Numbered from the stretch's first letter, positions 13,421 through 40,889 are shown. The stretch: DNA of 64,000 nucleotides from Candidatus Bathyarchaeota archaeon (GCA_018396535.1 JAGTQC010000003.1:988-64987); one strand, 5' to 3'. Notes: generated from the letters alone by a model not told the origin. Numbers and translations: made by a program.

Positions 13421-14617
13421 TTGGCTGCTATGGATGTATCCACCCTATTCTCGCTCATAGGTTTATTCATAATAATAGGGTTTATAGCTGATATAGCCTT
13501 TAAGAAGATAGGTATACCTGATCTAATAGTTCTCGTAGGTTTAGGATTACTGGTAGGTCCTATACTAGGTTTGATAGATGTAGACTATATCAGGGGATCT
13601 ATGCATCTAATATCGACTTTGGCTATAGCTATAATACTATTCGATGGAGGTTTAAGCTTCGATATTAGATCCGTAATATCTGGTGCTTCTAGAGCTGTTA
13701 TCCTAGCTCTATTAGGCTTCATCTTATCTACGATATCGGTGACACTATTCTCTATCTTAATCCTGAACTGGGATATACATAGTGGAGTACTGCTCGGAGT
13801 CATAGTTAGCGATACGAGTTCAGCTGTAACTATTCCCATCGTAACTAGGCTATCAACACTGAACGGTAGGATAGCATCTATGCTAACTCTCGAATCGGTG
13901 TTAACCGATGTATTAGTCGTAGTCGTGGGTCTAACGCTTATTAGGATACCTGTGAATCTAGCTAGTGAATCGATTATATGGATGTTGGTTAGAGAAACCG
14001 TATCATGCTTCTCCATCGGTTGCTTCTCAGGTATAATCGCAGGCTTAATATGGTCTAAAATACTCGAAGCAGCTTACAGGGAGGCTTATAGGGATATTCT
14101 AACATTATCAGTAGCTCTACTACTATACGGCTTTGTCGAGATCCTAGGAGGAAGTGGACCTATATCCGCTCTCTCCTTCGGGCTAACCCTAGGAAATACA
14201 AGGCTGTTAAAAACTTGTTCAAGAAGCGAGGCTAGCATAGGCGTGGATGTTAGAACCTTCCAATCCCAGATATCCTTCCTAGTAAGGACATTCCTATTTG
14301 TATCTATAGGTGTAGTCTCAGTATTCGACGATATAGTGATAGTAGTCATCGGGCTAGCCATATCGATAATCCTCATCATCACGAGATACTTAGCTGTCAG
14401 AGTATCGTTATTCAAAGCTCCTCTAATCGTTAAGCTTAAAACACGAATTCTAACATTCATGGTGGGTAGGGGTTTAGCAGCAGCATCTATAGCGAGTTTA
14501 GCATCGTACTATCGTATACCTCATAGCGGTGAGATGTATAGTTTAACAGTATCAATTATACTGTTCACGGTGATACTCTCTTCTATAGGAGCTATGATAG
14601 AGAAGCTTTCATCTTAG
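13421..14617 (+). CDS. Cation:proton (Na+/H+) antiporter, CPA1/NhaP-like
   Basis: Multi-TM protein with an N-terminal ...IIIGFIADIAFKKIGIPDLIVLVGLGLLVGP... motif characteristic of Na+/H+ exchangers. Confidence 0.65.
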   Translation: MAAMDVSTLFSLIGLFIIIGFIADIAFKKIGIPDLIVLVGLGLLVGPILGLIDVDYIRGSMHLISTLAIAIILFDGGLSFDIRSVISGASRAVILALLGFILSTISVTLFSILILNWDIHSGVLLGVIVSDTSSAVTIPIVTRLSTLNGRIASMLTLESVLTDVLVVVVGLTLIRIPVNLASESIIWMLVRETVSCFSIGCFSGIIAGLIWSKILEAAYREAYRDILTLSVALLLYGFVEILGGSGPISALSFGLTLGNTRLLKTCSRSEASIGVDVRTFQSQISFLVRTFLFVSIGVVSVFDDIVIVVIGLAISIILIITRYLAVRVSLFKAPLIVKLKTRILTFMVGRGLAAASIASLASYYRIPHSGEMYSLTVSIILFTVILSSIGAMIEKLSS

Positions 14618-15706
14618 ATCAGCTCTACCTGCCATATACTTATCCATAACCTCGCTAGGTATATTAACATCAACCTCCCTATGCCTAGTAGCAGACTCGT
14701 AGAAAGCGTCTATAACATACTGCTCTACGACTATACATACCGGATCTATAGGTGACGGTAGCCCTTTCTCTACAGCTTCGATAAACCTATACATCTTCTC
14801 ACGCCAAGCCTCCTCCCCCTTCTTAGGTAGGATAACTTGCGAAGTGAGCATATACCCGTTTTCATCTCTATACAATCTAAGAGGGTTAAGCTTCAAGCCA
14901 CCCATACTACCCATGAAGAATGTTTCGCCAAGGTTATCGTTATGCATAGCCCATGCAACCTTTACTAGAAGTATACCTCCCCCGTCAAATCTTACAATCC
15001 CCATAAAGAAATCTTCGACTTCGAATGCATCTGGATTCCACTTCCATCCCCCCTCGACTACAGCCTCTCTACGTCTCCCTATAGCTGAAGCTGTATATCC
15101 GTATACGCTAACTGGTATAGGTGATAGGAGTATGTAGAATGCATTATCTAGAGCATAGCATCCTAGATCTAAAAGTACACCACCACGGGAAATATCCCTT
15201 CTAGTAAAGCTTTCACCAGGTATAGCTCTCCTCCTCTCTCCCCCTACTATACTCTCTCCATAATAGAACTCTCCTAGTAACCCGTTTACGACGAATCGTC
15301 TAGCAGCTATTATTTCTGGATCGAACCTTGTCTGGAACCCCACCATAAGTATTCTCCCACTCTCCTCAGCTGCTTTAAGCATATTGAAAGCTTCAATACC
15401 AGACGTAGCCATAGGCTTCTCTACGAGGACATCTACTCCATGTCTGAGAGCGTATATCGTCGGCTCAGCGTGGGATGAGTGGGGTGTACATACACTTACA
15501 GCATCGAGTTCGACGGAATCTATAAGATCCTTATAGTTTGTGAAAACATTCTCTCTGGGTATACCGAATTTTTCAGCAAAACTCAAAGCTCTCTCCTCTA
15601 TAATATCGCATACACCGGTAAGCTCAACTCCTAGCTCCTTATAGAATCTTGCATGTGTAGCAGCTATACCCCCAGCTCCTATAATACCTACTCTAACCCT
15701 GCTCAT
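14609..15706 (-). CDS. Gfo/Idh/MocA family NAD(P)-dependent oxidoreductase (ThuB-like)
   Basis: VGIIGAGGIA N-terminal Rossmann motif and an EKP motif. 365 aa. Confidence 0.8.
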   Translation of the reverse strand: MSRVRVGIIGAGGIAATHARFYKELGVELTGVCDIIEERALSFAEKFGIPRENVFTNYKDLIDSVELDAVSVCTPHSSHAEPTIYALRHGVDVLVEKPMATSGIEAFNMLKAAEESGRILMVGFQTRFDPEIIAARRFVVNGLLGEFYYGESIVGGERRRAIPGESFTRRDISRGGVLLDLGCYALDNAFYILLSPIPVSVYGYTASAIGRRREAVVEGGWKWNPDAFEVEDFFMGIVRFDGGGILLVKVAWAMHNDNLGETFFMGSMGGLKLNPLRLYRDENGYMLTSQVILPKKGEEAWREKMYRFIEAVEKGLPSPIDPVCIVVEQYVIDAFYESATRHREVDVNIPSEVMDKYMAGRADLR

Positions 15707-15900
15707 AACCTATCGATTGATAAAGATCGAGCTCATATAAGTCATGAATATATATTCTACAACGGAATATCATAGCCTACTGTATAGTGATTAAGATTTA
15801 GTGGTTGAATCATATCCGCATCCCGATCTCCCGTATTTAAGCGTATACTCAGTAGTTAATCCTTAAATCCTCCGCACCATACATCATACCGTAGACCACT

Positions 15901-17757
15901 ATGAGCCTCCCATCTAGACCTATAGTGGATTCTATCATCGATCTTAAAAACCTAGATTTCAGTATCGGCTTCTTAAACTGGTTTGCAACTTCTGATAGGA
16001 TTGGCGGTAGTACATTTATCTTAGACCCTAATGGTGGTGTAAGAGTTATCTGTCGTGAGGGTGGATGGAGGCTCGAGTATAAGCCTCTACTCAGAGTTTC
16101 TGAAGGAGAGCGTTTTACATTAGAAGTGGAATCCTCTTGTAGACTTAAGAAAACTAGATTCTGTGGTAGGACTGGGGAGTTGGATTTCCTATCGACTAGG
16201 ATCGATATTCTAGATGAGAATAGAAACCCTGTTAGAGTAGTCTTCGATAGATGGATCTTCGGTGATTCAGGTGAACCATTCATACGTACAGATCTAGGTC
16301 TATGGAGATGCGGGGATATAAGGCTTGTAGGATCTAAAAGCTTGAAACGTAGAATAAGCTTCTTCCAGGTACCTAGGGGTGGGAGGTATCTATCTATAGT
16401 TATCGAAGGTAGAGGTGAGGGGGAGAGTTATGTAAAGCGTATCGAGCTTAAACGCGGTATCCCTATGAATATAGAGTCTACCCGTCAACCAGTCTACTTT
16501 AGAGATGCACCTAGAGCCATAGTATACAAAAGGATTAGCTTAGGAAATTATGCTGCTAAATTCCTAAGGATGGGCGACCTCGACGGTGATGGTAATATCG
16601 AATTCGTATTCGCTCAGAACGAGAGGATAGGTCCAGGTGACATATATAAGCATATAACATGTCTCACCGCTATAGATATGGATGGCAGGATCCTATGGCA
16701 GATAGGCTCTCCTTCACTCGAAAACTTTGAAGTTACCTCCGATCTACCAGTCTCTATATACGATATCAACGAGGATGGTAGATGCGAGGTTATATGCTGT
16801 ATGAACTTCAAGATAATGATTCTCGACGGTTTGACTGGAAAGGTTATACGTATGGCCGATACTCCAGAATCATGTACTGGTGGAGGTTATGTCGAGGGGC
16901 CTGAAACTTTATTCGGGAGGATCAGCGGAGATTGCATAGTCGTATGTAATCTAAGAGGTTTAGATAGCGATAGAGATTTCCTTCTTAAAGATCGATACAA
17001 TAATGTATGGGCATATAACGATAAGCTGGAGATGATATGGCATTATAGTGGTAAGCTTATACATTCACCCCTAGTCTACGATATCGATGGCGATGGGAGG
17101 ATGGAGGTATTCGTAGGGGATGCTCTCCTAGATCACGATGGCTCTCCCATATGGCATATAGATATATACGATCATTGTGACAGCGCAATAGTATATAGGC
17201 ATAGAGATAGACTTATATTAGCCGTAGCATATCAGAATGGAGGCTTCCACTTCCTAGATGCTGAGACTGGTGATATAATCAAGGAGTATTACCTAGGCCA
17301 TGCTCAGACTCTTTCACTAGGATATATAGGTGTCGGAGGGGAGAGGCTAATATGTGGGCATACCTTCTGGGGCGGGTTAAACCAATTCATCTTTAATCTA
17401 GATGGAGAGATAGTCTACGCTATATTCGATGGAGTATACGGATGGATACCTGTAAACTGGATTGGGGATGGATCAGAGCTCCTAGCTTCACCTAGAGGTC
17501 TATACGATTGTTATGGTAATATGGTGGTCGAATTCCCAGATCCGCATGTAGGTAGTATATGGGGTTCTAAAGTATTCGCATATGATATCTGCGGTGATGC
17601 TAGAGAGGAAGTTATCGTATGGGATGAGAGGTATCTATCCATCTATACACAGATGGGCGGAGCTAAGCCTAGATATAGGTTTGATAGAAAAATATATAAT
17701 CAAACATTCTATGGTAATGGAAACTTTGTAGGATATAGAATGGAGCTACCATACTAA
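15901..17757 (+). CDS. FG-GAP/Ca-binding repeat beta-propeller protein, possibly polysaccharide lyase family 11 (rhamnogalacturonan lyase)-like; no signal peptide
   Basis: Repeated DxDGDG-type motifs ([47 protein letters not shown]) spaced as propeller blades. 618 aa. Confidence 0.4.
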
Positions 17758-18485
17758 AGCTTCTCTAATGGATCTACCCTACCGAATACTGGAGGCCCCC
17801 TCCTAACAGGCTTAGCCCAGAGTATAGCGTTGTATATAACCCTTCTAACGTTAGGATCGTAGTATATCGGGTAGGTTTCATGTCCAGGGCTGAAGTAGAA
17901 TATCCGACCCATACCTCTATAGAAGCAGCATCCGCTTCGAAAAACTTCGCCACCCTTAAACCAGCTTATGAATACGAGTTGATCTGGAGGAGGTATATCG
18001 AAGGGTTCACCGTACATTTCGCTATGCTCCACTTCAAAGTATTCGCCTAAACCATCAGCTATCGGATGCCATGGAGCTACAACCCAAACCCTCTCCCTTT
18101 CACCAGCTTCCCTCCATTTCAAACGACAACTTGTACCCATAAGCCGTCTAAATATCTTAGATAGATGAGCTGAATGGAGGACTATAAGACCCATACCCTC
18201 GGATACAACCCTACGGTATACTCTATCTACGACTTCATCAGCAACCTTCTCATGTGCTCGATGACCCCACCATACAAGTACATCAGTCGATCTAAGCCTA
18301 TCCTCTGTTAACCCATGTTCAGGTTCTTCGAGAGTAGCTACACTAACTTCTAGATTCTCCATTCCTCTAAGATATTCTGCGATAGCTTCATGTATCCCCT
18401 TAGGGTATATCCTAGCTACCTCTGGATCCTCCCTCTCATGGATGTACTCATTCCATACAGTAACCCTGATCATATGCATAATCAA
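17754..18485 (-). CDS. ThuA-like (class-I glutamine-amidotransferase-fold) protein
   Basis: [11 protein letters not shown]...VLVWWGH...GLIVLHSA pattern typical of the ThuA family. 243 aa. Confidence 0.5.
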
Positions 18486-18593: not shown

Positions 18594-20081
18594 ATGTGCG
18601 ATAGATATAGGAATAGGGTGTTGGAGCATATAGATAGGAGGAGATTCTTCTTCATAGGATTGCTAAGCCTAATATGGCTCATCCTTAGAAGCGGTACTAA
18701 ACCTTCAAGAATAACATATCCCTGTCAAAGGGTAGCTCTAGCGAACGTTCAGCTATGGCTCATATTGTACATGGCTCCAATCATATATGCATTTCACGGT
18801 TTAAATCTATCATCTCTTAAAAACTTTTTCAAACGTAAGAAGCTATTCACCATAGCTCTAGCCTCATGTATAATTATAGCAAGCTTTACTACAATCTGGT
18901 TTATCTTAGAACGTAGTCGTGAAGTATCTGTGGAACTATCTATAGAAGGGAGGTTAGCATCTAGAAGCCCGTCATCCGATATATTCGTTATCGTAGGTAC
19001 TAATGGTTATGATGGAGGATTCCGTAAGCTTATCGAACTTATGTCAACCTATGGTATTAGATTTTATAGATCTGATACTGTAGGAGAGCTTAAGGGTCCG
19101 GATGGGTTGATAGCTCGCGATGACGTCGTTATAGTGAAGGTTAATTCTCAATGGGATGAGAGAGGTGGGACAAATACTGATCTTCTAAAAGCTGTTATAG
19201 AAGCTATAGTAGGTCATCCAGATGGATTTATAGGTGAGATAGTCGTAGCGGATAATGGTCAAGCACAGTATGGACCGTACGGTTTTGGAGGAAGTTTAAA
19301 CTGGGATCGTAACAATGCTGAAGATAGGGCGCAGTCTGTACAGAAGGTTGTAGATCTGTTCTCTAACAGATATAGGGTATCCACCTACCTCTGGGATTCT
19401 ATAACACTTAGAAGAGTTAAAGAGTATATCGAAGGGGATATGGAGGATGGATACGTTGTCTACGATAATCCTGATCCTAAAACTGGTATAATCGTATCCT
19501 ATCCTAAGTTCAAGACGAAGTTTGGTACATATATAAGCTTCAAGTATGGATTATGGGATCCGGAATCTAAGAGCTACCGTCAAGATAAGCTTAAGGTAAT
19601 CAATATACCTGTACTTAAGACGCACTCCATATATGGGGTTACCGCATGTGTAAAGCACTATATGGGTATCCCATCTGATAGGCTTACACAGCATAACCCG
19701 CATATATCCGTAGGATCGGGTGGTATGGGTACGCTCATGGCTGAGACTAGATTCCCCACATTGAATATACTCGATGCCATATGGATCAATCCGCATCCTA
19801 GAAGCGGTCCTAGAACACCTTACAATTCTGCGGTTAGAGTTGGGGTTATAGCAGCTAGCCTTGACCCTGTAGCGCTAGACTACTGGGCTTCGAAGAATAT
19901 ACTCATGAAAACTGCTAGTATTCTAGGTTATAGAGATCTATCATCTATGGATCCAGATAATACTTCACCAGGATCATTCGGTTCATGGCTTAGATTATCG
20001 ATGGAAGCTCTTAGAACAGCAGGATACCAGGTTGTAATGGGGGATGAATATATAAACGTATACGTGTACAGATACAGGTAG
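18594..20081 (+). CDS. DUF362-domain protein with an N-terminal twin-arginine (Tat)-like signal and TM segment; probably exported
   Basis: DRRRFFFIGLLSLIWLIL Tat-like signal. A C-terminal LKTHSIYGVTACVKHYMG DUF362 motif, comparable to KAHGSAGFAAAIKNVG in the 1141 gene. Confidence 0.45.
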   Translation: MCDRYRNRVLEHIDRRRFFFIGLLSLIWLILRSGTKPSRITYPCQRVALANVQLWLILYMAPIIYAFHGLNLSSLKNFFKRKKLFTIALASCIIIASFTTIWFILERSREVSVELSIEGRLASRSPSSDIFVIVGTNGYDGGFRKLIELMSTYGIRFYRSDTVGELKGPDGLIARDDVVIVKVNSQWDERGGTNTDLLKAVIEAIVGHPDGFIGEIVVADNGQAQYGPYGFGGSLNWDRNNAEDRAQSVQKVVDLFSNRYRVSTYLWDSITLRRVKEYIEGDMEDGYVVYDNPDPKTGIIVSYPKFKTKFGTYISFKYGLWDPESKSYRQDKLKVINIPVLKTHSIYGVTACVKHYMGIPSDRLTQHNPHISVGSGGMGTLMAETRFPTLNILDAIWINPHPRSGPRTPYNSAVRVGVIAASLDPVALDYWASKNILMKTASILGYRDLSSMDPDNTSPGSFGSWLRLSMEALRTAGYQVVMGDEYINVYVYRYR

Positions 20082-34398: not shown

Positions 34399-36303
34399 AT
34401 GTGTAGGTGGATAAGTATGCCCTATAATACCGTTATCATAGATACATCATCTAGTCCGTATGCTAAGCTTCACCCTATACCTATCGAAGAAGTACGTCTT
34501 GAAGATGGATTTTGGGCTCCTAGGCTTAAGATTCTTAGAGAGGTTACCATTCCATCTCAGTACAGTCTACTTGAGAGTACTGGGCGTATCGATAACTTTA
34601 GACGTGCAGCAGGGAAGGTATCTAAACCGTTTTCAGGCTTGATCTTCAACGATAGCGATGTATATAAGTGGATAGAAGCTGTAGCATTCCTTCTCGCATA
34701 TGGTTTCGATGAGAATCTCTACAAGCTCTCCAGATCTGTTGTAGAGGAGGTTGTAGCTGCTCAGGATGATGATGGTTATCTCAATACATACTTCATGTTT
34801 GAATTTAAGAATATGAGATGGCGTAACCTTAGAGATAGCCATGAGTTATACTGTGCTGGCCATCTTATGCAAGCTGGGGTAGCATACTATAGATCTACCG
34901 GTAGGAGGGATCTTCTCGATTCTGCTATAAGGTTTGCGGATAACATATACGATACATTCGTAGCTAAAGGCTTCCGATGCGTAGATGGTCATCCTGAAGT
35001 TGAGATGGCTTTAGTAGAATTATACCGTACGATCAGGGATAGTAGGTATCTAGATCTAGCATGCTTCTTCATAGATAATCGAGGTCTAGGTCTTATAGGT
35101 GGAAGTCCATACCATATAGATCACAAACCGTTTAGAGAGCTTTCAGAGATAGTGGGGCATGCGGTACGTGCACTCTACTTGAATTGTGGAGCTACAGATG
35201 TATACATGGAGATAGGGGATGATAGGATTTGGGAAGCGTTACAGCGTCTATGGCGTAGTATGGTGTATCGTAAGATGTATATAACGGGGGGTGTCGGATC
35301 CAGGTATGAGGGTGAAGCCTTCGGTGATGATTATGAGCTTCCAAATTATAGAGCATATTCTGAAACTTGTGCTGCGATAGCTAGCTTCATGTGGAATTGG
35401 AGGATGCTTAACGCTAGTATGGATGCATGCTATACGGATATTATGGAGCTTGCATTGTATAACGCTATCCTATCAGGTATATCGTTGGATGGTAGATCAT
35501 ACTTCTATGTAAACCCGTTAGCGGATAGGGGTCGTCATAGGAGGCAGGATTGGTTTACATGTGCATGCTGCCCACCTAATATAGCTAGGCTTATAGCTTC
35601 GATCCCAGGGTATATCTATTCTAAATCCGTAGATGGGTTATGGGTTAACCTGTATATTCAGAGTACGGTTTCTACTAATCTAGAATGTGGTAGAGTTAGG
35701 TTGAAGCAGGTTACCGATTACCCATGGGATGGTAGGGTGAAGCTTATTGTCGAGCCGGAGAGGGAGGATGAATTCTCCATATACATACGTATACCTGGAT
35801 GGTGTCGTAACTTTAGCGTAGAGGTTGATAGGGAGAGGATCGATGCTAAGGTTAGGCCGCCGTCATATCTAGAGGTTAGACGGGTATGGAGGTATGGGGA
35901 TTACATAAGTTTGTATATGGATATGCCTGTAGAGCTTATGGTTTCTCATCCATGGGTTACCGAGAATAGTAGTAGAGTCTCTATAGTGAGAGGTCCGTTA
36001 GTATATTGTGTAGAGCAGGTTGATAATGAGGGGTTTGATATATGGGATCTAGCTATCGATCGTAGTATAAGATTCGAGTTGAAGCTATGTGAGGATTTTT
36101 TAGGACGTATAGTGAGGATAGTGGGGGATGGGTATACCTTAGAGTTTGAAGGTGGAGAGATGCTCTATACCAATATAGATAATCTACGTTATAGGGTTAG
36201 AAGGGTTAGGTTTAATGCTATACCCTACTATGCTTGGGCGAATAGGGGTCCTGGATCTATGATCGTATGGATCCGTTTAATCGATGGGTATTTGAAAGTA
36301 TAG
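34399..36303 (+). CDS. Glycoside hydrolase family 127 (DUF1680) beta-L-arabinofuranosidase-like
   Basis: CACCPPN zinc/catalytic cysteine motif characteristic of GH127 (HypBA1-type). 634 aa. Confidence 0.75.
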   Translation: MCRWISMPYNTVIIDTSSSPYAKLHPIPIEEVRLEDGFWAPRLKILREVTIPSQYSLLESTGRIDNFRRAAGKVSKPFSGLIFNDSDVYKWIEAVAFLLAYGFDENLYKLSRSVVEEVVAAQDDDGYLNTYFMFEFKNMRWRNLRDSHELYCAGHLMQAGVAYYRSTGRRDLLDSAIRFADNIYDTFVAKGFRCVDGHPEVEMALVELYRTIRDSRYLDLACFFIDNRGLGLIGGSPYHIDHKPFRELSEIVGHAVRALYLNCGATDVYMEIGDDRIWEALQRLWRSMVYRKMYITGGVGSRYEGEAFGDDYELPNYRAYSETCAAIASFMWNWRMLNASMDACYTDIMELALYNAILSGISLDGRSYFYVNPLADRGRHRRQDWFTCACCPPNIARLIASIPGYIYSKSVDGLWVNLYIQSTVSTNLECGRVRLKQVTDYPWDGRVKLIVEPEREDEFSIYIRIPGWCRNFSVEVDRERIDAKVRPPSYLEVRRVWRYGDYISLYMDMPVELMVSHPWVTENSSRVSIVRGPLVYCVEQVDNEGFDIWDLAIDRSIRFELKLCEDFLGRIVRIVGDGYTLEFEGGEMLYTNIDNLRYRVRRVRFNAIPYYAWANRGPGSMIVWIRLIDGYLKV

Positions 36304-36308
36304 TCTTG

Positions 36309-37712
36309 TTATCTGAAGTGTTTAGCCATCTCCTCGTTCTCGCTTATGGATAGTAGAGCGTTTATTACGCCTTCAGCCTGCCTGGTATTCTTTGTTCTAA
36401 CATCTACTATCACCCAGTTGAATAGCGTATCTCTCCCACCTTCTAGATATGCTTCGAGAGCCCACTCCATCCTAAGGAGTCTGGGGTAGATTACGTAGTT
36501 CATTATACGTTTAGGTAGCTTCTTTACTCCAATCCTATGTACACCCTTTCCATCTATCTCTACAGGTATCTCTACAGCTACGTTATCTGGTATACCCTCT
36601 ACTACTCCTTGATTCGTAACGTTAACCTGGTAGACCCCCCTTATATCGTTTACTATAGAGTCTATGATAGGTACTATCGATTCTCTACTCTTCCTAGGTT
36701 GTAGTAGTTGAGTTAGCGGTGTCGTTTCATCTTTTATAGCGGATATAGCTTTATTCAGCCATTCTTCATGTCTATCTAGGTAGATCTTCCATCCGATCTC
36801 TGAATCTGGTCCACCGGTAGGTCCGAACCATCTCTTCTTAACTCTCAGATTCCAGTGGTATTTCCATGTTCCTCCACGTACTGTATCACCTACAGGGTAT
36901 AATCCGTAGCATCTATACATATCTACTGCAGCTGGAGACATCTGTATATCGAATGGGCTTCTCTGCTTTCTACGCCATATCCTCCAGTACCTCTCTGAAT
37001 CCTTCTCTATCCATTCATCTATGAGTGGGTATGCATCCCTATCATCATACCTAAACTTTGTAAGCCAGATTACATGGTTGAATCCTATACACTCGAACTC
37101 GACCTTCTCCGGATCTAATCCTATCGTCTCCGCTATCTCGGAGTAGCCTAGATGCCCATGGCATAAGCCTACAACCTTAACCTTTGTCTCCCTGGAGAGT
37201 AGTGTTGTTCCCTCGAATACAGGGTTTGCTAGTAGGAATAGCCATGCATCTCTGCTTAGATCCTCTACATCTCTAGCTATATCCATCATGAGTTTGAACT
37301 GGTAGTAGCCCCATATCGTATGGTAGTCTGATACCATATTCCACTCGACGCTGTTTATACCTCTATAGTAGCCGTATTCTTCGCATATACTCCGCATCCT
37401 CTCGTAGTATCCATGCCCGCGGGCTAGGGCTGTATTTATAACGAAATCTGCATCCTCTATGGATTCCCTCCTATCAAGCGTCTTCTCGAATTTGAATTCA
37501 GCTTTAACTTCGGATGCATATCTCCTTGCGAAATCGTATACGAGGTTTAGCCTCTCCTCGTTTATATCCATGAAGGAGATCGTGCTCCCGTAGAGGCTGG
37601 GTGTGAGGCATAGGTCGCGGATTAGGGTTGCAGACCAAGCTATACTACCAGCGCCTATTACAGAAATCTTTATATCTATCATAGATTCCACCGAACGATA
37701 TAGATCATCCAC
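36309..37712 (-). CDS. Glycoside hydrolase family 4 (NAD+/Mn2+-dependent alpha-glucosidase/galactosidase or 6-phospho-glycosidase family)
   Basis: N-terminal ISVIGAGSIAW Rossmann motif and a VGLCHGH motif typical of GH4. 467 aa. Confidence 0.75.
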   Translation of the reverse strand: MDDLYRSVESMIDIKISVIGAGSIAWSATLIRDLCLTPSLYGSTISFMDINEERLNLVYDFARRYASEVKAEFKFEKTLDRRESIEDADFVINTALARGHGYYERMRSICEEYGYYRGINSVEWNMVSDYHTIWGYYQFKLMMDIARDVEDLSRDAWLFLLANPVFEGTTLLSRETKVKVVGLCHGHLGYSEIAETIGLDPEKVEFECIGFNHVIWLTKFRYDDRDAYPLIDEWIEKDSERYWRIWRRKQRSPFDIQMSPAAVDMYRCYGLYPVGDTVRGGTWKYHWNLRVKKRWFGPTGGPDSEIGWKIYLDRHEEWLNKAISAIKDETTPLTQLLQPRKSRESIVPIIDSIVNDIRGVYQVNVTNQGVVEGIPDNVAVEIPVEIDGKGVHRIGVKKLPKRIMNYVIYPRLLRMEWALEAYLEGGRDTLFNWVIVDVRTKNTRQAEGVINALLSISENEEMAKHFR

Positions 37713-37772
37713 TAATCCTCTTAAGCTTTACGTATATGGTCTAGGATCTGCTAGGTTTATTATCGTATTAGG

Positions 37773-38162
37773 TTAGCCTATTAGGCGGTCTATTATAGTC
37801 TTAACCTTCTCTATCTTCTTCAACATATGCTCCAGATACTCTATACCTTCATCTGTTATAGTGTATATCCTTTTAGCTGGGCCTCCATCATCTGTCTCCC
37901 ATCTAGAGTGTAGTAAGCCGTGTGCTTCTAGTTTACGTAGTAACCCGTATACGAGTGGTTTAGGTACATCTAGATTATACTTCTCCTTTAGGAGTGAGTG
38001 TATTTCGCTTCCATGCATAGACTTCTCCTTAACTAGTTTGAGTATAGCTATGTGGAGTAGTCCACGTATAGGTCCGAGATGTATCGGGGGGTGGTGTGGA
38101 TGGGGTAGCCTATGCTCGCATCCATGTGGATGTTTAGGGTGTATGTGTGGATCTATACACAT
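37773..38162 (-). CDS. PadR-family winged-helix transcriptional regulator with a His-rich N-terminal extension
   Basis: LLHIAILKLVKEKSMHGSEI...YGLLRKLEAHGLL PadR core. N-terminal HIHPKHPHGCEHRLPHPHHPPIH. Confidence 0.75.
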   Translation of the reverse strand: MCIDPHIHPKHPHGCEHRLPHPHHPPIHLGPIRGLLHIAILKLVKEKSMHGSEIHSLLKEKYNLDVPKPLVYGLLRKLEAHGLLHSRWETDDGGPAKRIYTITDEGIEYLEHMLKKIEKVKTIIDRLIG

Positions 38163-38168
38163 GTCTAC

Positions 38169-38202
38169 TCAGATATCTAGGTATATCAGATATCTAGATA
38201 TA
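38169..38202. promoter_or_regulatory. Two direct copies of TCAGATATCTAG(G/A)TATA, each with an AGATATCT palindrome, in the divergent PadR/GH51 intergenic region; candidate PadR operator
   Basis: Copies at 38169-38185 and 38186-38202, 7 nt upstream of the PadR ATG. Confidence 0.4.
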
Positions 38203-38260
38203 AGTGTTTACCATCATCGAGGATAGAGATTGTTTCTAAAGATTTAAGTCTAGTAGATGG

Positions 38261-39814
38261 GTGTTAACTCTCTCTTCTAGGGGGTTATGGATGGGGTGTT
38301 GTAGGTTAGTCGTAGGGTTGGATGAACGTGTAAGCGATATAGATCCTAATATCTTTGGGCATTTTATCGAGCATCTTGGGCGTTGTATATATCATGGTAT
38401 ATGGGTTGGTAGAGGTTCTGATATACCTAATATTGATGGTTTGAGGATGGATGTAGTAGAGGCTTTCAGATCTATCGGTGTGCCTATTATTAGATGGCCT
38501 GGCGGCTGTTTCGCGGATACGTATCACTGGATGGATGGTGTTGGTCCTGTGGAGCGTAGGCCTAGGAGGGTTAATATATGGTGGGGTGGTGAGGAGACTA
38601 ACGAGTTTGGGACGGATGAGTTTATTAAGTTATGTAGGCTTGTAGGTGCTGAGCCGTATATATGCGTGAATGTTGGCTCCGGTAGTCCTGAGGAGGCTGC
38701 TGCTTGGCTTGAATACTGTAACTATACTGGTGGTAGTAGGTATGCGAGGCTTAGGGTTGAGAATGGTTATCCAGAGCCGTATAGGGTTAGGTATTGGGGT
38801 GTTGGTAATGAGAGTTGGGGTTGTGGCGGATCGTTTGATCCTGTATACTATGCTTGGGAGTATCGTAGGTTTGCTACATTTCTTAAACAGACTGATCCAT
38901 CGGTTAAACTAGTAGCTTGCGGGCATACATCTACCGATTGGAATCTACGCTTAATGGAGTCTTTGAGGAATTTCATCCATCTAATCGATTACCTATCTAT
39001 ACACTACTACTTCTTCCGTAATCATCAACGTTATGGTGGTGATGTTGATTTCACAGATGAGCAGTATCTGAATCTTTTATTCGATATTCAGCATCTAGAG
39101 TATGAGATTAAGCAGGCTATATCTATAGTAGACTTCTTCTCCGAGGGTAGGAAGGATGTATGGATAGCTGTGGATGAGTGGGGTGTATGGCATCCTCAAG
39201 CTACTACCGAGAATGGATTATACCAGCAGAATACTCTTAGAGATGCTATACTAGCAGCATCCATCCTCAACCTATTCATCAAATATTCGAGGAGGGTTAG
39301 GATGGCTAATATAGCTCAAGCTGTTAACGTACTACAGAGTATATGTTTAACTAGGGGTAGGGATACGGTTCTAACACCTACATACCATGTTTTCAAATTG
39401 TATAAGCCTCATATAGCTGGTATAGCTTTGGGAACGAGGGTTGAATCCCCCGTCATAAAGGAGCCATCTAGAGATGATTTCGTAGGTCTCCGCGGTGTTC
39501 GTAGAAGGCTTGAATCTCTGAAAGCTATAGATGCATCAGCATCTATAGATCTAAATAGTAGTAGACTAGTTATAACTATAGTGAATAGAAGTCTAGATGA
39601 AGATATCGATATAGAAGTGGTAGTTAACGGAGGATACAGGATAGCTGAGAGTGAATACGCATACATAACATCTAAAAGTGTAAGATCCTACAACGATTTC
39701 GATACACCTAACAATATACGTATAACCGAGGAATCCATAGATATCAAGAGTAACAGATTCACCCTAAACCTTCAGAAACATTCGATAAATAGGCTAATAC
39801 TAAAGCTAAGCTGA
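38261..39814 (+). CDS. abfA: GH51 alpha-L-arabinofuranosidase
   Basis: NIFGHFIEHLGRCIYHGIWVG...WPGGCFAD...WGVGNESWGCGG motifs typical of GH51. 517 aa. Confidence 0.8.
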   Translation: MLTLSSRGLWMGCCRLVVGLDERVSDIDPNIFGHFIEHLGRCIYHGIWVGRGSDIPNIDGLRMDVVEAFRSIGVPIIRWPGGCFADTYHWMDGVGPVERRPRRVNIWWGGEETNEFGTDEFIKLCRLVGAEPYICVNVGSGSPEEAAAWLEYCNYTGGSRYARLRVENGYPEPYRVRYWGVGNESWGCGGSFDPVYYAWEYRRFATFLKQTDPSVKLVACGHTSTDWNLRLMESLRNFIHLIDYLSIHYYFFRNHQRYGGDVDFTDEQYLNLLFDIQHLEYEIKQAISIVDFFSEGRKDVWIAVDEWGVWHPQATTENGLYQQNTLRDAILAASILNLFIKYSRRVRMANIAQAVNVLQSICLTRGRDTVLTPTYHVFKLYKPHIAGIALGTRVESPVIKEPSRDDFVGLRGVRRRLESLKAIDASASIDLNSSRLVITIVNRSLDEDIDIEVVVNGGYRIAESEYAYITSKSVRSYNDFDTPNNIRITEESIDIKSNRFTLNLQKHSINRLILKLS

Positions 39815-39883
39815 TGGTTGAAATCCATATAGAATGTTATGGAAAAACTAGGAGGGGGTATACCAGATACCTATATACATAGA

Positions 39884-39956
39884 AGCCGGGGAGGGGATTC
39901 GAACCCCTGTGATGCGGGTCTGCAGCCCGCCGCCTACGCCTCTCAGCCACCCCGGC
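39884..39956 (-). tRNA. tRNA-Cys (anticodon GCA)
   Basis: Minus-strand sequence GCCGGGG...GCGGG-CTGCAGA-CCCGC...AGGGGTTCGAATCCCCT-CCCCGGC-T. 73 nt, no encoded CCA. Confidence 0.8.
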
Positions 39957-40055
39957 TCTACTATAGGAGGATAGGTGCTCGACTTCTATTAAGGTTTAAC
40001 TCTATAACCAGGCTTAGCTTTTTATACAGTGAAGCTTCAACTTATGGCTATCTAG

Positions 40056-40889
40056 GTGGTGTATATGAAGCTAATCTTCGGCGCTATGAACGATCCATCT
40101 AAGGATATAGTAGAGGAGGTTAGATCTATAGCGTTACTCGGCTTCGACTATATAGATCTTACAGTAGAGGGTCCTAGAGCTTCTACTAGAGATATCATGG
40201 ATAGGTTGAGAGAGTTGAGGGATGAGATATCTAGATTAGATCTGGATATAGTAGGTCATACAGCATGGTTTCTAGAATTAGCCCATCCATATGAACGTAT
40301 ACGTAGAGTTTTCCTAGAGGAAGCTTTAGAAGCTTTAGATATACTAGCTAAGCTAGATGTCGATAAGGTTACGTTCCACCCATTTCTTCTAGCTTCAAGC
40401 TTGTATCGTAGACAACCTTATAGATCTAAACTTCTAGAATACCTCATATCATCCCTTAGGGAGGTTAGTATTAGAGCAGACGATAACGGTATGAAGGTTA
40501 TGATAGAGAATATGGATGGTGGTAGGATGTGGCGTATAGATGAGTATGCTAGGATTATTAGCGAAGTAGATGTATACTTCCATCTAGATGTAGCTCATGC
40601 AAACCTGGATGTAGAATCGCTTAATCTACGATCATTTCTAGATAGATTCAAGCCTGGTGATAGACTCCTCCATATACATATATCCGATAATGTAGGAGGA
40701 TCAGCATCTAAGGGTTGGGATCTACATCTACCGATAGGTGTAGGATCGATAGATTGGGAGGAGGTATTCAGAATACTAAAGGATTACGGTTATAGTGGAA
40801 CTATAACGCTAGAAGTATTCTCTAAGGATAGGGATTATCTTAGGATGAGTCTAGATAAGGTTAGGAATCTATCATCGAGGATAGCTTAG
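40056..40889 (+). CDS. Sugar-phosphate isomerase/epimerase (xylose-isomerase-like TIM barrel) family protein
   Basis: His/Glu/Asp metal-ligand pattern spaced as in AP-endonuclease-2/xylose-isomerase-like TIM barrels. 277 aa. Confidence 0.6.
   Translation: MVYMKLIFGAMNDPSKDIVEEVRSIALLGFDYIDLTVEGPRASTRDIMDRLRELRDEISRLDLDIVGHTAWFLELAHPYERIRRVFLEEALEALDILAKLDVDKVTFHPFLLASSLYRRQPYRSKLLEYLISSLREVSIRADDNGMKVMIENMDGGRMWRIDEYARIISEVDVYFHLDVAHANLDVESLNLRSFLDRFKPGDRLLHIHISDNVGGSASKGWDLHLPIGVGSIDWEEVFRILKDYGYSGTITLEVFSKDRDYLRMSLDKVRNLSSRIA

Follow-up and report, generated by a model that had tools for sequence, protein, structure and literature searches.

The rhamnogalacturonan lyases of polysaccharide lyase family PL11, represented by YesW and YesX of Bacillus subtilis and 4cag of B. 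licheniformis, are eight-bladed FG-GAP β-propellers with DxDGDG-type Ca loops; they cut the Rha-GalA bonds of rhamnogalacturonan I by β-elimination. The PL22 oligogalacturonate lyase (Ogl) is a cytoplasmic, Mn2+-dependent, seven-bladed β-propeller whose metal sits on His and Gln ligands, and it acts on imported pectic oligosaccharides. Gfo/Idh/MocA oxidoreductases are found with a ThuA-family protein in the rhizobial thuEFGKAB operon (ThuAB, a trehalose 3-dehydrogenase), and with eliminases in the Dgp and AL/BT systems, where the eliminase is either a TIM barrel (DgpBC, AL1) or of the DUF1080 type (AL2). PF06439 (DUF1080) is the family of AL2, a 3-keto-α-glucoside lyase and hydratase (bioRxiv 10.1101/2024.03.25.586180). 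In YesW, the active-site metal ligands are His363, His399, Asp401 and Glu422; Arg452 and Lys535 of PL11 bind the substrate carboxylate and are catalytic, and Tyr595 stacks (PMC8787155).

Organization of the Locus

The window, the whole 64,000-nucleotide stretch of DNA that was analyzed, comes from a Bathyarchaeia MAG. Three genes reported in a preliminary description were recovered at exactly the coordinates given there, and profile searches confirmed all of the family calls: a Gfo/Idh/MocA NAD(P)-dependent oxidoreductase (14609..15706, minus strand; 365 aa; Pfam GFO_IDH_MocA, 5.6e-31, plus the C3 domain), an RGL11_C/FG-GAP propeller protein (15901–17757, plus strand) and a ThuA-family protein (17754..18485, minus strand). 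A DUF362 protein of 495 aa, identified by Pfam and carrying hydrophobic N-terminal segments, is encoded next (18594..20081, plus strand). The gene order is thus Gfo←, →propeller, ←ThuA, →DUF362, a strand arrangement absent from the preliminary description. The propeller and ThuA genes are convergent and overlap by 4 bp, and the propeller and Gfo genes are divergent, with 194 bp between them (15707..15900). Because the strands alternate, a single transcript shared by Gfo, propeller and ThuA is impossible, and the co-transcription expected of them is ruled out. The divergent intergenic region is AT-rich, with TATA-like stretches ahead of both genes as putative promoter elements, and is the sole site where Gfo and propeller could share regulation.

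As in ThuAB, the ThuA-family and Gfo/Idh/MocA genes lie less than 3 kb apart. Unlike in ThuAB, they are neither adjacent nor co-transcribed, being separated by a gene on the opposite strand, and there is no thuEFGK-type ABC transporter in the scanned window ORFs; no SBP/ABC genes were found among the scanned ORFs from 8.8 to 24 kb or among the other scanned window ORFs. The preliminary description had also drawn in a TIM barrel at 40056 (40056–40889, plus strand). Its family is confirmed (AP_endonuc_2, Pfam 2.8e-39; best solved relative MJ1311), but the gene is 22 kb away from the trio, within a separate GH127/GH4/GH51 cluster (34399–39814). The glycosidases of the window are GH127, GH51, GH4 and GH20; GH28, PL1 and GH105 were not found in it. 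No eliminase gene, whether of the DgpBC/AL1 TIM-barrel or the AL2 DUF1080 type, occurs within 20 kb of Gfo, which sets the window apart from the Dgp and AL/BT systems.

The Propeller Protein Resembles PL11 Lyases but Appears to Form a Separate Family

The 618-aa protein consists of a CBM-type β-jelly-roll domain (15901..16509, plus strand; aa 1–203) and an eight-bladed FG-GAP β-propeller (16510..17757, plus strand; aa ~204–618). The N-terminal domain is a CBM-like β-sandwich with an invariant loop, W118-x-F-G-D-x-G-E-P-F. The propeller matches Pfam RGL11_C (1.4e-14; 54 bits, with the cutoff at 27) and FG-GAP_3, although the RGL11_C match is partial (aa 364–585, corresponding to profile positions 212–443 of 490). 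The sequence has DxDGDG-type motifs at residues 226, 288 and 394; a further one, near 562, is degenerate. Scanning the sequence revealed no signal peptide and no TM segment; together with the 15 Cys residues, this is consistent with the intracellular location proposed earlier, and a cytoplasmic protein would differ in this respect from PL11.

The proposed resemblance to PL11, and with it the carbohydrate-active type, is borne out by Pfam, sequence search, Foldseek and the CBM-like N-terminal domain. Among solved structures, those closest in sequence are of PL11, namely YesW, YesX and 4cag (phmmer/profile, 1e-9 to 1e-19), and the top four Foldseek matches are all PL11 (E ~1e-16), with BamB at 1e-10. 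In addition to the fold and the Ca loops, both groups have "GDxREE" and "IYT" motifs. However, identity to PL11 is only ~16–23%, the "RGYY" of the lyases is replaced by "KDRY," and the N-terminal domain is CBM-like in the archaeal and DUF1080-like in the bacterial propeller homologues. From these comparisons we read the propeller as belonging to an uncharacterized sister family of PL11, related but distinct, with ~105 clusters at 50% identity. A literature search turned up no paper on this family.

The YesW residues H363, H399 and D401 correspond to H388, H425 and D427 of the propeller, which are invariant across 30 homologues, so the His-His-Asp metal site of PL11 is kept. The fourth ligand, Glu422, is replaced by Gln446 in the archaeal proteins and by Ser/Asp in the bacterial ones, with an alignment uncertainty of ± one residue there. 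The substrate-binding residues are different. In place of Arg452 ("GRG"), the alignment shows the family's G-H-A-Q-T loop, whose G-H-A-Q is invariant and which lacks Arg; the residue aligned with Lys535 ("NGTK") is Pro in bacteria and Trp/Gly in archaea; and no equivalent of Tyr595 could be placed. With neither Arg452 nor Lys535 conserved, the protein need not act as a lyase. The set H388, H425, H467 and Q469 is, we presume, reminiscent of the metal ligands of PL22 Ogl; no search with the propeller protein gave either a sequence or a profile match to PL22.

The loss of the PL11 Arg and Lys would also fit a reading in which the three genes have no functional relation, being neighbors by descent within a shallow lineage, and the propeller has no catalytic role but binds glycans or serves as a scaffold, in the manner of the Bap1/BamB-type eight-bladed propellers. 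We consider this unlikely. The invariant residues of the propeller domain (K363-D364-R365, H388, D394/D398/E402, H425, D427, H467, Q469, W520, D536, N600 and Y604) include polar ones (KDR, three His, Asp, Gln, Asn and Tyr) that do not vary from archaea to Planctomycetota despite 30–40% overall identity. So dense an invariant polar set is typical of an active site, and its His-His-Asp triad coincides with the catalytic metal site of PL11. A cytoplasmic protein would also be an unlikely matrix component or adhesin.

The Oxidoreductase Is Closest to DgpA

The label "ThuB-like" given to the oxidoreductase was not confirmed by the family models. None of the NCBIfam models reaches its cutoff on this protein: the glycoside and disaccharide 3-dehydrogenase models score 27–37 bits against cutoffs of 650–750, and the BT_2158 and BT_2159 family models are far under theirs. 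In a PDB sequence search, the closest solved relative was DgpA (7xr9; 6e-42, 36% identity over 272 residues), and the next-best solved Gfo family followed at 2e-22, ~20 orders of magnitude behind. Like DgpA and AL3-BT3, the window Gfo has the EKP lysine (K97). Its catalytic motif, D180-L-G-C-Y184, is of the D-x3-Tyr form seen in GFOR, whereas DgpA has D-x3-His, and the C-terminal 90 residues are left unaligned. Homologues at 45–59% identity occur in Thermofilaceae, Caldivirga and Ignisphaera. Judged by these sequence comparisons, the protein is a member of an archaeal clade whose nearest characterized relative is DgpA, a C-/O-glycoside 3-oxidoreductase.

Conservation of the Trio and Its Neighborhoods

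A trio of the window type was seen only in the window and at two other loci (L095 and L096), so that the co-conservation anticipated in the preliminary description was not borne out. Half of the close relatives (at least 82% identity) either lack Gfo or have another gene in its place; in these equally close relatives its slot upstream of the propeller gene holds MFS_MOT1 or nothing, with no Gfo pseudogene remnant. Sister lineages retain ThuA without Gfo. ThuA itself adjoins the propeller gene only in relatives at least 82% identical, and was found beside it at none of the more distant archaeal loci and none of the 71 bacterial loci.

Beyond the trio, Gfo genes are enriched close to archaeal propellers, with 10 within 3 kb and 1 at 3–10 kb (p = 6e-4; shared ancestry is uncorrected in this comparison, to which 5 of 12 lineages contribute). 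At L106 and L107, a Gfo from the subfamily of the window Gfo (40% identical to it, with the DxGCY motif in common) is divergently upstream of a 52%-identical propeller. AP_endonuc_2 genes lie within 3 kb of the propeller at four archaeal loci and at L013; the recurrence of both Gfo and TIM-barrel genes near propeller homologues is a likeness to Dgp and AL/BT.

These observations bear on the oxidative pathway suggested earlier, a single route in which Gfo, assisted by ThuA as in ThuAB, would oxidize a glycoside at C3 and the propeller would eliminate or hydrate the 3-keto-glycoside, giving an archaeal version of Dgp, AL/BT or ThuAB. The DgpA-like Gfo and the Gfo enrichment stand in its favor, as do the recurrence of the complete trio at L095/L096, the AP_endonuc_2 neighbors (the family of the AL1/DgpC eliminases) and an N-terminal domain matching PF06439/DUF1080, a 3-keto-disaccharide-hydrolase family, in 7 of 12 bacterial homologues. 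The Gfos of the pectin-type cluster described below also count in its favor, being similar to uronate 3-dehydrogenases of the WlbA type and to the glucuronide 3-dehydrogenase P2B11. DUF1080 is, however, also a lectin- or CBM66-type module, and comparison of the N-terminal domain of the archaeal propeller proteins shows no DUF1080 likeness. In the propeller, the conserved site matches a uronate lyase family, and we know of no propeller fold among known 3-keto-glycoside eliminases. There is no operon, Gfo is dispensed with in equally close relatives, and the ThuA linkage is confined to one shallow lineage. Separate transcription units, and togetherness only in very close relatives, leave the three-gene oxidative pathway unsupported, and we regard it as improbable; taken as a whole, the earlier interpretation finds support in part only.

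A different association is found in four distinct organisms of one archaeal subclade, which have the cluster Gfo1, GH28-propeller, AP_endonuc_2, Gfo2, DHDPS and PL1. GH28 and propeller are on the same strand with a gap of 17–41 bp, and the Gfo1 proteins are mutually 71–76% identical. This conserved cluster points to pectin-type substrates. GH28 genes of this subfamily are also found less than 3 kb from the propeller at 4 of 71 bacterial loci, and GH88 is near propeller homologues at two. GH28 is the most informative recurrent neighbor of the family. The neighbors of most homologues are unrelated, as a purely incidental association would predict: the bacterial loci gave 160 Pfam families among 111 neighbors, with a maximum recurrence of 3–4, the archaeal neighbors include toxin-antitoxin, purine, C1-metabolism and ceramidase genes, and what lies just before the propeller gene varies. 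Against a lack of any functional relation, the GH28 and Gfo links recur across domains.

The cluster could also be read as a conventional lyase pathway, in which the propeller yields a 4,5-unsaturated uronate and Gfo acts after glycosidic cleavage rather than before it; where present, the TIM barrel would be a KduI-like isomerase, Gfo a KduD-like reductase and DHDPS a KDG aldolase. The combination of PL1, GH28, propeller, TIM barrel, two Gfo and a DHDPS-family aldolase suits this scheme, archaeal KD(P)G aldolases being of the DHDPS family, and the cluster DHDPS protein has a sub-threshold match to NCBIfam Arch_KDGaldase. The GH88 genes of bacterial neighborhoods fit as well. The scheme seems unlikely. 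The window Gfo is only 27–32% identical to the archaeal-cluster Gfos and of a different subfamily, its nearest characterized relative DgpA oxidizes intact glycosides, neither aldolase nor TIM barrel lies beside the trio, and the literature consulted documents no Gfo-family KduD analogue.

Proposed Function

We favor, with moderate confidence, an explanation in which the locus holds three independently transcribed sugar-metabolism genes in a variable neighborhood and the propeller is most likely a metal-dependent cleaver of acidic, pectin-type oligosaccharides. These would be imported, and the chemistry would probably be β-elimination on a substrate unlike that of canonical PL11. The propeller has retained the PL11 His-His-Asp metal site, added the family-specific invariant residues KDR, His467 and Gln469, and lost the Arg and Lys with which PL11 enzymes grip the carboxylate of galacturonate. 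Gfo may be a DgpA-like sugar or glycoside oxidoreductase that could oxidize a glycoside at C3, or reduce or oxidize the product. We infer that its position beside the propeller reflects a loose, facultative functional link recurring in several archaeal lineages.

A more far-reaching proposal is that the propeller family, which in bacteria is fused to a DUF1080-type domain, adds a new catalytic module to oxidation-elimination glycan breakdown, its substrates being 3-keto- or uronate-type glycosides produced by neighboring Gfo dehydrogenases. We give this proposal a low probability; if true, the Dgp and AL/BT systems would have in this family an archaeal and PVC-type counterpart, and the non-Koshland route would extend to pectin-type substrates and to Archaea.

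The ThuA and DUF362 Genes

The ThuA-like protein passed the profile check as a genuine ThuA-family member, matching at 2.1e-35 over the full length (profile positions 1–209 of 209). Its best solved relative is 1t0b, a Geobacillus ThuA-like protein of unknown function (E 5e-105). Homologues number more than 8000 at E<1e-40, with 70–78% identity across archaeal classes; so widespread and highly conserved a gene would be present here by lineage-specific synteny. The ORF encodes 243 aa from a TTG, and homologues have 241 aa, which makes the ATG at 18479 the probable start. The DUF362 gene, divergent from ThuA, is context only; its synteny with ThuA is kept in all close relatives (L001, L095 and L100).

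Relationship of the Propeller Protein to PL11

The preliminary description likened the 618-aa propeller protein (15901–17757, plus strand) to rhamnogalacturonan lyases of family PL11, and PL11 does rank first by sequence search, family profile and fold. Pfam assigns RGL11_C to residues 364–585 only (1.4e-14; 54 bits against a cutoff of 27), together with FG-GAP_3. The PL11 structures YesW (1.3e-9), 4cag (3e-8) and YesX (7.5e-8) were retrieved by phmmer, and a profile of the propeller family matched PL11 structures at 1.6e-19 to 2e-16. Foldseek returned four PL11 entries at E ~1e-16, with BamB at 1e-10. The AlphaFold model, built with 30 homologues, is confident (pLDDT 88.5, pTM 0.90) and predicts an N-terminal β-sandwich (residues 1 to ~200) followed by the propeller. 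DxDGDG-type motifs occur at residues 226, 288 and 394. The protein has 15 cysteines and neither a signal peptide nor a membrane segment, which makes its earlier description as intracellular a reasonable one.

For the active site, family members were aligned with eight genuine PL11 proteins encoded at the loci examined, using residue roles in YesW numbering as summarized in PMC8787155. The metal-site residues His363, His399 and Asp401 of YesW correspond to H388, H425 and D427, all invariant. The fourth ligand, Glu422, is Gln446 in archaeal propellers. At the position of Arg452 (in "GRG"), the family has an invariant G-H-A-Q loop devoid of arginine; Lys535 (in "NGTK") has no counterpart, "RGYY" is "KDRY", and Tyr595 has no placeable equivalent in the alignment. 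Altogether, K363, D364, R365, H388, H425, D427, H467, Q469, W520, D536, N600 and Y604 are invariant. On this alignment, we read the family as a sister of PL11 whose active site has been remodelled, and not as canonical PL11. The best-supported role for the propeller protein would be that of a cytoplasmic enzyme of this related but distinct family, probably metal-using and acting on imported acidic, pectin-type oligosaccharides; β-elimination would be its most likely chemistry. If enzymatically active, the protein represents an uncharacterized sister family of PL11. A literature search for a characterized member, or for PL11 in Bathyarchaeia, found none. Automated pipelines tag family members "rhamnogalacturonan endolyase" without evidence, and the family is widely mis-annotated.

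When 1.84 billion representatives were searched exhaustively, 105 clusters passed E ≤ 1e-30 (~105 family clusters at 50% identity) and 474 passed E ≤ 1e-10; a single cluster matched the full archaeal architecture. Hosts include Bathyarchaeia, other Thermoproteota-type archaea, Planctomycetota, Acidobacteriota, Armatimonadota, Verrucomicrobiota and Bacteroidota. The first ~200 residues of the window protein lie outside the alignment with bacterial homologues. The N-terminal domain of the latter matches PF06439 (3-keto-disaccharide hydrolase/DUF1080) in 7 of 12 cases, and its profile matches CBM66. Homology with the archaeal N-terminal domain, which when modelled alone reached a pLDDT of 79.7, was discarded (hhalign probability 1.7%). 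At three homologous loci (L109:9920–11798, L126 and L127, e.g., L127:2480–3459), the propeller reading frame is broken into two or three pieces, which may represent pseudogenes or frameshifts introduced by assembly.

The Three-Gene Arrangement Reflects Shallow Synteny

The ORFs lie where they had been placed, and Pfam backs the flanking genes as well as the propeller: the Gfo/Idh/MocA (Gfo) gene (14609–15706, minus strand; GFO_IDH_MocA, 5.6e-31), the ThuA gene (17754–18485, minus strand; ThuA, 2.1e-35 over the whole profile) and the more distant TIM-barrel gene (40056–40889, plus strand; AP_endonuc_2, 2.8e-39). The window comes from a Candidatus Bathyarchaeia MAG, and a 482-aa NCBI fragment matches its propeller protein at 100% identity. 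The name ThuA-like is further borne out by a match of 5e-105 to the Geobacillus ThuA-like protein 1t0b. The listed ThuA ORF has a TTG start and encodes 243 aa, two more than every close homologue (241 aa), which makes the ATG at 18479 the probable start.

Gfo and propeller are divergent, with 194 bp between them, propeller and ThuA are convergent with a 4-bp overlap, and a DUF362 gene then follows on the plus strand, a layout that the preliminary description had not mentioned. Because the strands of Gfo, propeller and ThuA alternate, a single transcript is impossible. Co-transcription and the three-gene operon were discarded on this ground, and three separate transcription units are best supported. 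A bacterial promoter and terminator scan was uninformative, the host being an archaeon. The adjacent DUF362 gene (18594–20081) encodes 495 aa with hydrophobic N-terminal segments and in the close lineage always lies divergently beside ThuA; a second DUF362 gene (1141–2250) encodes 4Fe-4S domains.

The conservation survey took in 36 distinct propeller loci of archaeal type, representing 12 lineages at 75% identity, plus 71 loci from bacteria that belong to the same subfamily; each was viewed over 20 kb or less. The shallow lineage of the window contains four mutually equidistant relatives (82–86% identity). The window order is ADH, Na/H exchanger, Gfo, propeller, ThuA and DUF362. L095/L096 share it, with pseudogene fragments of the Na/H exchanger; L001/L100 have MFS_MOT1 instead of Gfo; and in L011 ADH is followed by the propeller with nothing between. 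Since close relatives differ here and tblastn found no Gfo pseudogene remnant in those that lack the gene, Gfo occupies a variable slot upstream of the propeller (compared at window 13421–15900, L001:6868–10000, L011:5585–5944 and L095:7014–10053). ThuA adjoins the propeller gene only in the shallow lineage; it is absent beside propellers of 69–75% identity (L101, L109 and L127), in all other archaeal lineages and at all 71 bacterial loci. The ThuA family, with >8000 matches at E < 1e-40 and 70–78% identity between archaeal classes, is distributed far more widely than the propeller family. ThuA is best explained as a bystander kept by shallow synteny. The trio is not co-conserved, that synteny accounts for the appearance of a three-gene pathway, and the result for the window is mostly corrective.

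Gfo Genes Recur near Propellers

The window Gfo had been described as ThuB-like. It reached no NCBIfam equivalog; its best sub-threshold matches were an archaeal UDP-GlcNAc 3-dehydrogenase (123 of 450 bits) and IolG. The nearest solved structures are DgpA (7xr9, 6e-42) and DgpA1 (2e-41), with 36% identity over 272 residues, and IolG is the next family (2e-22). DgpA comes from the gut strain PUE and is a C-/O-glycoside 3-oxidoreductase (PMC9939296). The window protein has the EKP lysine and a D-L-G-C-Y motif, and its clade is archaeal (Thermofilaceae, Caldivirga, Ignisphaera and Tardisphaera, 45–59% identity). In Caldivirga maquilingensis (L097:5532–10117), a second Gfo gene directly follows a 56%-identical homologue, and the genes ahead of that homologue encode a TrmB-family sugar regulator and a 793-aa protein lacking a Pfam match.

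Of 36 distinct archaeal loci, 8 (in 5 of 12 lineages) have a Gfo gene no more than 3 kb from the propeller. Counted as individual genes, Gfo density near archaeal propellers reaches 0.57 per 10 kb up to a distance of 3 kb, versus 0.04 at 3–10 kb (10 versus 1 genes; binomial p = 6e-4, ignoring phylogeny). In L106/L107, where the propeller shares only 52% identity, the gene divergently upstream of it is a Gfo of the window type (40% identity, same motif). Among the 71 bacterial loci, GH28 of the subfamily present in the archaeal pectin-type cluster described below occurs within 3 kb in four and a Gfo gene in four others; an unbiased Pfam census of 111 bacterial neighbours gave 160 families, with no dominant partner and no ThuA.

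The preliminary interpretation is partly supported. Two of the findings that the preliminary description had named as refuting its three-gene pathway, no co-transcription and no co-conservation of the genes, were obtained here. Its core idea, an oxidative (3-keto-glycoside) route joining the propeller family with Gfo, is a less likely reading. Three points favor it: the window Gfo is DgpA-like, Gfo and TIM-barrel genes recur near propellers, and bacterial propellers carry a fused DUF1080-type domain, from the family that includes the AL2 lyase and hydratase of 3-keto-glucosides (bioRxiv 10.1101/2024.03.25.586180; PMC9007349). The DgpA-like Gfo would have a loose, facultative link to the propeller, and its recurrence makes an involvement of sugar oxidation at C3 possible.

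Across lineages, the gene found most often directly beside archaeal propellers encodes a ~293-aa protein of the acetamidase/formamidase family (FmdA_AmdA; L116:8950–9831, L118:2480–3361, L108:12012–12614 and L094:4706–5224), which also occurs at two bacterial propeller loci and could be a deacylase. Other archaeal neighbours include ceramidase with phosphodiesterase, purine, toxin-antitoxin and C1-metabolism genes. At L101:2915–12991, a 73%-identical propeller lies beside DUF6259, a radical-SAM/SPASM protein (sulfatase-maturase-like), a sulfatase, GH4 and Gfo, a context that hints at a sulfated glycan.

An Archaeal GH28-Propeller-PL1 Cluster

The clearest conserved context was found in one archaeal subclade, whose propellers are 47–54% identical to the window protein (L009, L110, L111, L112 and L113; e.g., L009:175–10858). 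The order is Gfo1 (minus), GH28 and propeller (both plus, 17–41 bp apart), in some cases AP_endonuc_2 (minus) and Gfo2 (plus), then a DHDPS-family aldolase (plus) and the pectate lyase PL1 (plus); a DHOdh/ferredoxin-like protein is also present. The cluster occurs in four distinct organisms from different metagenomes, with Gfo1 proteins 71–76% identical among themselves. Its GH28 resembles polygalacturonase PglA, α-galacturonidase BT4155 and rhamnogalacturonidases, all below cutoff. Its Gfo proteins are similar to WlbA-type uronate 3-dehydrogenases and, next, to P2B11 glucuronide 3-dehydrogenase. Under a conventional alternative to the oxidative route, the lyase would act first, and the unsaturated uronate would then be handled by the Gfo, the TIM barrel and the DHDPS protein. 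The cluster would be a testable handle on the use of pectin-like polymers by uncultured hot-spring and sediment archaea and, with the corrected view of these "rhamnogalacturonan endolyases", is the most useful outcome of the analysis.

A Separate Sugar Cluster Contains the TIM Barrel

The TIM-barrel gene at 40056, xylose-isomerase-like and cited earlier alongside the trio, belongs instead to a separate cluster with a GH127 β-L-arabinofuranosidase (34399–36303, plus), a GH4 NAD/Mn-dependent glycosidase (36309–37712, minus) and a GH51 α-L-arabinofuranosidase (38261–39814, plus). GH4 enzymes act by C3 oxidation followed by elimination. The cluster (34399–40889) points to degradation, inside the cell, of arabinan or of oligosaccharides from pectic side chains, and the organism looks equipped for the latter. 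A GH20 gene also lies upstream in the window. The best solved relative of the TIM barrel is the uncharacterized MJ1311, and its connection to the trio was discarded, as it is unrelated to the TIM barrels beside archaeal propellers. One weak lead comes from Ca. Poribacteria (L013:1–3039), which has the best bacterial propeller homologue (41% identity). There, a TIM gene ends 3 bp before the propeller; it is similar to the gene at 40056 (38% identity, 7e-56), and no other connection of the latter with the propeller family emerged.
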